Below the pieces are notes generated by a model. That model searched no databases. It worked only from the letters and a program-made list of their open reading frames with translations, and was not told the origin of the DNA. The position numbers and the translations under genes are program-made. Below are positions 56,605 through 58,810 of a stretch of 64,000 nt of DNA, in pieces. The first letter of the stretch is position 1; each line of letters opens with the position of its first letter. This stretch comes from Methanobacteriota archaeon (GTDB lineage Archaea; Halobacteriota; Bog-38; Methanoflorentales; Methanoflorentaceae). The stretch lies in contig CAVRAO010000008.1 in NCBI GenBank assembly GCA_963719035.1, positions 32,001-96,000 on the forward strand, read 5' to 3'.

Positions 56605-57087
56605 AACCACCTCTCGTGTGCTGCTAGTTTCCTGCTAAAACATCTAAACATCCTGTCCTCACGTAAAGCTTTAGCTAGGCACTTAGTGCCGAGATTCGGA
56701 TGTATCCCCCGTGGTCGGTTAAGCGTCGCAAAACGGTTGAAGTGAATAAAGGGCAATCTCGAGACGTTATAGCAAAAGAGCTAAATAATTAGAGTTTTTT
56801 TTTAAATGTATGAAGCGGTATTTCCACTGCACAGTCTGTGACGACATTCATTTTGGGGAAAATCCTCCTGAGATATGCCCTACCTGCGAAACTATGAGCT
56901 CCTACAAAGGGGTCACAAAAGACGAAGCTCAAGAATACCTCTTATAAAGAGTATCGCATTCGGAAATTGTTGCGAATCTTGCCGATTTTTCGTGCAGTCT
57001 TGAGACTACCGTAGATTTGACATAAACGCAAAAAATCGTAAAAAAAGAAACGAGCGCTGCAGATAATGACTTCTGCAGCACACTAAA

Positions 57088-57651
57088 TTAAATTTGATCC
57101 ATCATTGAATCGGACATGCCGGCCATTTCCTCTTCGGATGGCCCCTTCGAAAACGTAGCGGCTTGAATCACGTCATCAATTCGAAGGATCATGTTCGCAG
57201 CTTCAGTAGCTGATAAGATAGCCTGCTTCTTAGTTCTCAGAGGCTCTATCACGTCAGGCCACATGTCAGTGGCTTTTCCGGTTGAAATCTGAAGCCCCAT
57301 CGTTTTATTTCCCGATTCGTGGGCAGTCCTCAAGCCAACGAGCGAGTCCATCGGATCCAAACCCGAGTTTTCAGCAAGCGTTTTTGGGATTATCTCGATC
57401 GCGTCGGCGAATGCGATGACCGCGAGCTGCTCCCTCCCGCTGAGCGTTGAAGCATATTCTCGCAGTTGCATGGCAATCTCTATTTCAGGAGCGCTTCCAC
57501 CTGCGACGACCTTGCCGTCTTCGATCGCAGCTTGAACGACTCGAACCGCATCATACACAGCTCTGTGCGTCTCTTCGACGATATGATCGGCGCCTCCGTG
57601 AACGACAATACTGACGACCCGCGGGTTCTTACAGTCTTTTATTGTTATCAT
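57088..57651 (-). CDS. ths: Thermosome subunit, C-terminal part
   Basis: CKNPR..HGG, YDAV, AGGSAPE, IPKTLAENSG, EP, ILRIDDVI. Confidence 0.85.
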   Translation of the reverse strand: MITIKDCKNPRVVSIVVHGGADHIVEETHRAVYDAVRVVQAAIEDGKVVAGGSAPEIEIAMQLREYASTLSGREQLAVIAFADAIEIIPKTLAENSGLDPMDSLVGLRTAHESGNKTMGLQISTGKATDMWPDVIEPLRTKKQAILSATEAANMILRIDDVIQAATFSKGPSEEEMAGMSDSMMDQI

Positions 57652-57666
57652 TGTTGGGACCTCTCT

Positions 57667-58761
57667 CTAATCAATGCCACAGGTATCACAGCTTGATTCA
57701 ATATCAGTAGTTTCTTCTATCTCGCCTGCTCGGCCTAAGTCAGATCTGCTCAGATCGTCTAAGCTGGATACGACCCGGGCGCCGGTCACCTTAGAGATCG
57801 TCTCAATATCTTCTCCTTTGACGTTTTCCACTGCCATCACATTCTTCCGCGAAAAATGCCATTGGATAAGGTCGTCGATACCCTTCTGGCAAAAGACGAC
57901 GTTTGCACCGCTTGCCAGAATCTTGTCAGCTTTTTCGATCAGCGTTTCGTGATCACGTTCCATAAAGAGCTTCATTTGAGTAGGGTCTTTTATTTTGATT
58001 TTGGCATCAGTTTTGGTTTTGGCTAGCTCCAGTGGCTGATCATAGACGAGAATCCGCGCATCACATACTTTTCGTGGCATTCCCTCAGCAGCGCGTTCTT
58101 TATCGATAACGACGCCTTCGACGAGTTCCGAATCAGAGACAGAACCAGATACTTTCTTTTCAATTCTGATGTCTTCCTCATCGACTTTGAACTTCTTATT
58201 ATCCTTTTGAGCGACTGCTTTGACCGCTCTAACCACGAACTCGGGAAGAACGTCTTTTCCAACATCAGTCCCCTTGCCCGTGAGCGCCGTCTGAGCAATC
58301 TTCTTCAACAGGTCGTCGTCGTTTATCGAAACGCGGCGAGACATCGATTCTGCGACCTCAATCGCCTTTTCTGCTGCGAGGCTGTAGCCTTTTTCGATGA
58401 CCGTTGGGTGGACGTCTTGCTCAAGTAGGTCCTCTGCGTACTTTAGTAATTCGCCTGCCAAGATTACGGCTGTTGTCGTGCCGTCCCCTACTTCATCATC
58501 CTGCGTCTTAGCGACCTCGACCATCATCTTTGCTGCAGGATGCTCGATGTCCATTTCCTTCAATATCGTAGCACCGTCGTTTGTTATGACTACTTCGCCC
58601 ATCCCATCAACGAGCATCTTGTCCATGCCTTTTGGTCCGAGCGTCGTTCGCACTGTTTCAGCAACGGCCCTGCTTGCGGTAAAATTCATAGACTGGGCTT
58701 CCCTGCCCTTCGTCCTTTGTGTTCCTTCACGGAGAATGAGAATCGGTTGACCACCAATCAC
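57667..58761 (-). CDS. ths: Thermosome subunit, N-terminal part (ends at in-frame TAG)
   Basis: [34 protein letters not shown]. Confidence 0.9.
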
Positions 58762-58795
58762 TATGCTAACCTCCGAAATAACTAGAGTTGTTGTT

Positions 58796-58810
58796 CTATA
58801 TAAAATTTCT
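58796..58810 (-). promoter_or_regulatory. Putative BRE/TATA of the thermosome gene
   Basis: AGAAATTTTATATAG about 35 nt upstream of the GTG. Confidence 0.55.

Follow-up and report, generated by a model that had tools for sequence, protein, structure and literature searches.

A conserved two-gene thermosome subunit with a cysteine tail in an uncultured methanogen order of the Halobacteriota

In an uncultured methanogen order of the Halobacteriota that carries mcrA, two adjacent genes encode the third, lineage-specific thermosome (group II chaperonin) paralog, and we put the probability that this arrangement represents a fixed gene fission at about 90%. The arrangement was examined in a window of 64,000 nucleotides (the whole stretch of DNA that was analyzed) and in related genomes. 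The genome containing the window (2.19 Mb, 13 contigs, 91% complete) carries the split copy and two intact Cpn60_TCP1 genes, three in all. An earlier reading of the window from its letters alone (the sequence-only reading) had ranked first a naturally split two-chain chaperonin whose first chain carries a CxxC tail, and the comparative data given below bear this out. We regard the conserved two-gene layout of this subunit, found throughout the order, and its conserved cysteine tail as real and as moderately surprising. Group II chaperonins are single-chain, three-domain machines, and their allostery runs through the hinge region that is cut here.

Organization of the Locus

The features of the locus, all on the minus strand, are listed in Table 1, where N-part and C-part denote the upstream and downstream genes and their products. 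The sequence-only reading had described a TAG in frame within a CxxC insertion and 557 joined codons, and direct reading of the window reproduced every coordinate of this description; the N-part and C-part read through do give 557 codons. It had also assigned an SD and an ATG of its own to the second half, and the GAGGT block in the spacer was found at the same distance from the ATG as the GGAGGT block from the GTG of the N-part. The loop of the apical hairpin, said to hold 20 codons where canonical subunits have about 7 residues, was found to comprise 14 residues, the stop and five spacer codons, compared to 7 residues in unsplit relatives (e.g., RKVGGDE). The five spacer codons between the TAG and the ATG, which are in frame in the window, read REVPT, and the C-part has MITIKDCKNP as its N-terminus.

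A terminator scan of the region detected no terminator-like hairpin between the N-part and the C-part on the minus strand. The scan returned two sites where 1.7 were expected by chance, so that only the position of the hairpin next to the C-part is suggestive. Public gene calls list the parts separately. The exact 364-aa N-part protein is present as a separate gene, N-parts are mostly 364-369 aa, C-parts are 187 aa in 13 of the 15 listed members, and the contigs that hold the split parts reach 464 kb. Annotation pipelines name the halves as two separate "thermosome" or "TCP-1" proteins, and this naming calls for caution.

Table 1. Features of the split thermosome locus in window coordinates.
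Feature	Position	Strand	Basis
TTTTATATA, archaeal TATA-box-like element, 36 nt 5' of N-part GTG	58797-58805	-	by eye
SD-like GGAGGT, 7 nt 5' of N-part GTG start	58769..58774	-	direct reading
N-part gene, 364 codons plus TAG, GTG start at 58761	57667..58761	-	ORF reading
N-part C-terminal tail, residues 351-364 (14 residues), in place of 7-residue hairpin loop	57670..57711	-	alignment
Cys358-Asp-Thr-Cys361 (CxxC), then Gly, in N-part tail	57679..57690	-	
TAG stop of N-part	57667..57669	-	direct reading
Intercistronic spacer, 15 nt, AGAGAGGTCCCAACA	57652..57666	-	direct reading
GAGGT in spacer, 7 nt 5' of C-part ATG	57663-57659	-	direct reading
C-part gene, 187 codons plus TAA; ATG 57651-57649, TAA 57090-57088	57088..57651	-	
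Terminator-like hairpin, 10 pairs, then T-rich run, directly 3' of C-part	57054..57081	-	

Protein Family and Division of Domains

Read through with an X at the stop, the protein scored 718.1 bits against the NCBIfam model NF041082 (thermosome_alpha; cut-off 450), 709.7 bits against NF041083 (cut-off 400) and 696.3 bits against TIGR02339 (cut-off 671.1). Taken singly, the N-part matched positions 1-318 of the 490 positions of Pfam PF00118 (Cpn60_TCP1; 368 bits, E 7.9e-110) and the C-part matched positions 324-489 (190 bits, E 7e-56), both far above the cut-off of 34.3, and the two parts are thus exactly complementary. The N-part contains the equatorial N-segment (TNDG, GDGTTT), the intermediate N-segment (K163) and the entire apical domain as far as the first of the two strands in its last beta-hairpin. 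The C-part starts with the second hairpin strand (MITIKDC) and goes on to the intermediate C-segment, where the Asp of RAVYDA lies, and to the equatorial C-segment (GGSAPE). The ATPase motifs TNDG, GDGTTT, YDAV and GGSAPE had been read as intact, and all are present, each in columns that are invariant or nearly so in a 35-row alignment of thermosomes; T60, N61, D62, G63, G92-T96, K163 and D404 (read-through numbering) are invariant in the 35 rows. We take the invariant Asp of RAVYDA in the C-part to be the catalytic Asp (cf. GroEL D398 and Mm-cpn D386) and K163 to be the Lys of the TGK loop. With TNDG, GDGTTT and K163 on the N-part and the catalytic Asp on the C-part, the ATP site would need both chains.

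The closest solved chains were those of an ancestral group II chaperonin, Mm-cpn, the Thermococcus KS-1 chaperonin and 1A6D (E 1e-155 to 1e-167). An AlphaFold2 model of the read-through protein, built from the 35-row alignment, had a mean pLDDT of 80.7, and Foldseek aligned it with Mm-cpn, KS-1 and 1A6D chains at TM scores of 0.80-0.87 and 49-52% identity. The model has a long helix at residues 260-283, in keeping with a three-domain fold that includes a helical protrusion (lid). Residues 343-351 and 371-377 were modeled as strands, as would fit the final hairpin of the apical domain, and residues 354-367 (the tail and the untranslated spacer) had a pLDDT below 50. Instead of one polypeptide of about 520-560 residues, two cistrons encode the subunit in 21 of 21 orthologs.

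The two products could in principle work apart, with the N-part acting as a free apical-domain holdase and the C-part in another role. Each part has its own start signals, and the tail together with the residues specific to the split clade suggests some new function. We nonetheless consider separate roles unlikely: the equatorial ATPase domain of thermosomes is made of segments from both the N- and C-terminal parts of the sequence, the Pfam coverage of the two parts is exactly complementary, the ATP-site residues of both parts are invariant, and the two genes are adjacent in every genome that has them. A two-chain model also argues against separate roles. This model, built from separate alignments of the N-part and the C-part (51 and 48 rows), gave a median ipSAE of 0.83 over three runs (range 0.83-0.84), compared with 0.01 for the best of three controls. 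Thermosomes have been solved as single chains, so the score speaks for likeness, not for binding of these copies. For comparison, 58 of 80 solved complexes and 2 of 110 mismatched pairs attained an ipSAE of 0.83. At least 93% of the contacts were common to the runs, partner pLDDT was at least 82 and about 500 contacts were confident. The modeled interface includes N-part residues 344-351 against the start of the C-part, and it places residue 235 with the first strand of the C-part.

Conservation of the Two-Gene Layout

The order sample comprised 24 genomes of one family, of which 18 belong to the genus of the window and six to a sister genus. Of these 24 genomes, 21 have the split two-gene layout; they comprise 15 of the 18 from the window's genus and all six from the sister genus. 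The remaining three (G004, G007 and G016) are 64, 60, and 59% complete, and a contig-end fragment of the N-part is present in G004. In the 21 orthologs, the two genes are adjacent throughout, the N-part stops at an equivalent place, and the spacer always contains a purine-rich GGAGG- or GGGGAG-like block and is followed by an ATG start. The C-part occupies stop-to-stop frames of 188-200 aa. An equivalent stop in 21 independent assemblies means that the TAG of the window is neither a chance hit nor an error.

If the TAG were decoded, by pyrrolysine insertion or by readthrough, a single chain of 557 residues would result, and the sequence-only reading had listed this possibility at a lower rank. 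The host is a methanogen (mcrA was found in its genome), and a TAG stop with both parts in one frame is seen in the window and in ten other species of the genus. However, the stop codon is variable among the 21 orthologs (TAG in 14, TAA in five and TGA in two), the spacer ranges from 12 to 18 nt, and the N-part and the C-part lie in different frames in eight genomes. In the genome of the window, the best match to PylS_Cterm reached 18.6 bits against a cut-off of 178, no CUA tRNA was among the 34 tRNAs detected by Aragorn (genome 91% complete), and TAG terminates 208 of the 785 ORFs of at least 300 codons (26%). The variable stop, the out-of-frame orthologs, and the lack of both a PylS match over the cut-off and a tRNA-CUA exclude recoding at this locus, and the chance that the TAG is decoded is practically nil.

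A second possibility is that the parts are rejoined, either at the RNA level through a small intron (as of the archaeal bulge-helix-bulge kind), which had also been listed at a lower rank, or at the protein level by ligation or splicing. The break lies in a loop, and the Cys residues of the tail are of a kind usable by ligation chemistries. The features of the junction argue against rejoining. A hairpin of AATCAA with TTGATT had been proposed for the insert, and the pairing does exist in the window, but other species of the genus have AATCTG facing TTGAC, so the hairpin is not conserved; nor is the length of the spacer. The tail offers about 13 residues before the stop and none after the Met, which is far too short for an intein half, and Pfam detected only Cpn60_TCP1 and no intein-like domain in the parts. 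These observations, together with the RNA-library contigs described next, make rejoining very improbable.

The stretch or a part of it is present in 20 public runs from 12 studies. Four RNA-library runs were compared in the form of assembled contigs, from which neither transcription, a single transcript, its ends and its level nor every individual base can be read. The contig of X15 (record 9) covers 57161-58774 and crosses the junction with 0 gaps, and that of X16 (record 15) covers 57614-58527 and crosses the junction without a joint; 11 of 30 bins were covered in the X18 run. The contigs that span the junction (two runs of one study) carry the spacer, with no joint or gap, and fit an unspliced two-gene message, although assembled contigs drop rare forms and the lack of a spliced joint is for this reason weak evidence on its own.

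Beyond the order, 18 of the 401 genomes sampled across the phylum showed the exact junction pattern. All 18 belong to the window's family, and none of the 377 sampled genomes from 35 other families had it. Residues 325-390 were used for a word-seeded search of 5.8 billion proteins, which among 50 candidates gave no carrier of 306-975 aa other than N-parts. Ten of the 50 candidates had E values of 1e-5 or lower; nine of these are 340-364 aa long and one is 475 aa, and each aligns over 61% of the query, as N-parts should. Relatives of the size of the C-part comprised 14 clusters at 75% identity or more, with the next dropping to 65%. In a wider search for relatives, the best 80 of 590 were all unsplit thermosomes from other lineages (51-66% identity), with no close relative among them, and these 80 were used only for alignment depth.

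Candidates for further split genes were evaluated and rejected. Public chaperonins of about 181-200 aa that start at the same conserved Met (P0018-P0113) are contig-end fragments; in the five clusters that were checked, members range from 69 to 553 aa, bear "partial" labels and are trimmed to the first Met. Contig-end fragments that start at the conserved hairpin Met could thus pass for further split genes. A match in G034 that was flagged "1 TAA" is an intact frame of 543 aa.

Selection and Phylogeny

Both parts are under purifying selection. Values of dN/dS (NG86) were computed for five within-genus pairs and ranged from 0.058 to 0.112 for the N-part and from 0.040 to 0.168 for the C-part; between the genera, saturation of synonymous sites was found. 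The corresponding ranges were 0.020-0.068 for intact paralog A and 0.031-0.086 for intact paralog B. The values for the parts are about twice those of paralog A, so constraint on the split copy is somewhat looser.

In a phylogeny of 51 thermosomes from a quick IQ-TREE run, all 21 split copies group in a single clade (SH-aLRT 100), whose stem of 0.61 changes per site equals the stem of paralog B and is three times that of paralog A. The nearest unsplit sequence, from another family, has 61% identity and joins the clade with weak support (86); it has an ordinary 7-residue loop with no cysteines there. No unsplit intermediate was detected among the thermosomes compared. One split clade extends across both genera and the nearest unsplit relative has an ordinary loop, so the fission and the insertion are older than the separation of the two genera.

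The selection and tree data also bear on whether the split is the trace of a dying gene, that is, a nonsense mutation in a redundant third paralog, or a sequencing error. The sequence-only reading had placed this among its lower ranks. Two intact paralogs do exist and the stem branch of the split clade is long. Against this, the same break recurs in 21 assemblies, and these come from two genera that are saturated at synonymous sites; both parts have dN/dS values of 0.04-0.17, a start codon and an SD are conserved right after the stop, and none of the 21 genomes has further stops or frameshifts inside either part. A decaying or misread gene is highly unlikely to account for this pattern, and a maintained gene fission accounts for it. 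The split thermosome is thus a clean case of gene fission followed by long-term maintenance.

A frameshift was observed in an intact-type paralog of a single-contig genome of the sister genus. In this genome paralog A (L125; G022:C1:2271158-2272954) is frameshifted at the VFCQKGIDD motif, leaving overlapping frames of 311 and 272 aa, and is otherwise intact; the frameshift may stem from an indel in the assembly, or the gene may truly be a pseudogene.

Cysteine Tail and Clade-Specific Residues

The N-part ends in Cys-x-Thr-Cys in 20 of the 21 orthologs, followed by Gly-Ile-Asp in 19 of these and by Ala-Ile in G015. The codons of both tail Cys residues alternate between TGT and TGC among species, and this synonymous switching indicates that the Cys residues themselves are conserved. 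The tail amounts to an insertion of roughly seven residues that no unsplit relative carries. The exception among the orthologs is G018 (L016; G018:C1:946901-951571), where an extra G turns CATCGID into CGNMRN and makes the stop a TGA. The last six codons are shifted and the second tail Cys is lost, and the C-part and its start are unaffected. It is possible that the tail is dispensable in G018 or that the extra G is an assembly error; the genome is a single-contig assembly, so an indel error could have occurred. Genome-wide in the organism of the window, nine of 2274 frames of at least 150 aa encode other proteins with a CxxC within four residues of the end, and none of these has the tail motif.

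The split clade has 55 invariant residues that are almost never seen outside it. These include C233, H271 and the segment QWHFSR, which replaces QHYLAK. The last of these belongs to the helix after GIDDL (N-part residues 298-305; window 57850-57870, minus strand), which reads QWHFSRKN in all split copies versus QHYLAK in unsplit ones. We take this helix to belong to the substrate-binding face of the apical domain, so that client choice may differ in the split subunit.

A C-x-x-C-G motif has the shape of a rubredoxin or zinc-ribbon knuckle, and a metal site needs a second pair of ligands. The tail has this motif in common with such knuckles, but it is a single knuckle at a free C-terminus. A redox or metal function of the tail is a guess. 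In one scheme, which we find doubtful, fission would free the end of the apical chain, and the CxTCG tail, acting as one half of a knuckle of the rubredoxin type, would make up a metal or disulfide site together with the tail of a neighboring subunit or with Cys233/His302, which are clade-specific residues in the apical domain of the same subunit. The outcome might be a redox- or metal-switched subunit with an altered substrate-binding helix in an oxygen-sensitive methanogen. If the tail did bind metal or sense the redox state, it would represent a new way of chaperonin regulation.

The PRFSELT segment of CCT5 presumably lies some ten residues before the last apical hairpin. A 'release loop' of CCT5 is placed at PRFSELT in an excerpt of PMC5473854.

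Proposed Subunit and Relation to Known Systems

We propose that the subunit is made from two adjacent cistrons with the cut in the loop of the last apical beta-hairpin. The first chain (364 aa) would provide the nucleotide-binding loops and the whole apical domain and would end in a flexible tail with Cys-x-Thr-Cys-Gly. The second chain (187 aa) would begin with the second hairpin strand, at its conserved Met, and would supply the catalytic Asp together with what is left of the equatorial domain. The second cistron would be translated from its own SD and ATG, 12-18 nt past the stop, and its translation is probably coupled to that of the first, which would make the chains roughly equimolar. Neither chain is expected to form the equatorial ATPase domain alone, so both would have to fold together as one subunit with a composite ATP site. 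This composite subunit may then enter thermosome rings, with or without the two intact paralogs. Group II chaperonins form double rings of 8 or 9 subunits that close with ATP; the modeling here covered the heterodimer of the two chains.

The split subunit has its ATP-site motifs in common with archaeal thermosomes, including those of T. acidophilum (alpha/beta; 1A6D), Methanococcus maripaludis (Mm-cpn; 3KFB and 9CPK) and Thermococcus KS-1 (1Q3R), and its sequence matches these chains at E 1e-155 to 1e-164. In contrast to them, it consists of two chains cut in the last apical hairpin, carries the roughly seven-residue insertion that ends in CxTCGID, and belongs to a clade with 55 invariant residues of its own. 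Natural split genes are known in archaea, for example in Nanoarchaeota, where essential-type proteins are encoded in two pieces that reassemble. The thermosome pieces differ from these in being adjacent and probably co-translated and in encoding a chaperonin. Within the literature on thermosomes and split genes, the split genes in the excerpted text of PMC5434244 are those of DNA polymerase. In a full-text literature search whose coverage left out most subscription journals, no group II chaperonin split in nature came to light among the papers inspected.

According to the portion of PMC11596651 that deals with it, a Sulfolobus group II chaperonin (HSP-beta) that was circularly permuted by design still forms complexes (Paavola et al., 2006). 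As far as that account goes, the assembly of the permutant suggests that chain breaks in the apical region are tolerable. The Sulfolobus permutants, so far as they are described there, are man-made single chains with linked native termini and other cut positions, whereas the subunit described here is natural, consists of two chains and is under selection. A natural two-chain subunit amounts to a ready-made experiment on how much chain continuity is needed for chaperonin allostery. It also offers engineers a proven split site together with a free apical chain end.

A short ORF of 45 aa with four cysteines (CTVC...CPTC; window 56810-56947, plus strand) converges on the C-part and was not found in any of the five searched loci of the sister genus. 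That this ORF is perhaps linked to the CxxC tail of the N-part is only a thought. Its product matches Pfam RUBY_RBDX, the rubredoxin-like domain of rubrerythrin (E 1.4e-8), and it is present at 78-91% identity in all 13 searched loci of the window's genus.
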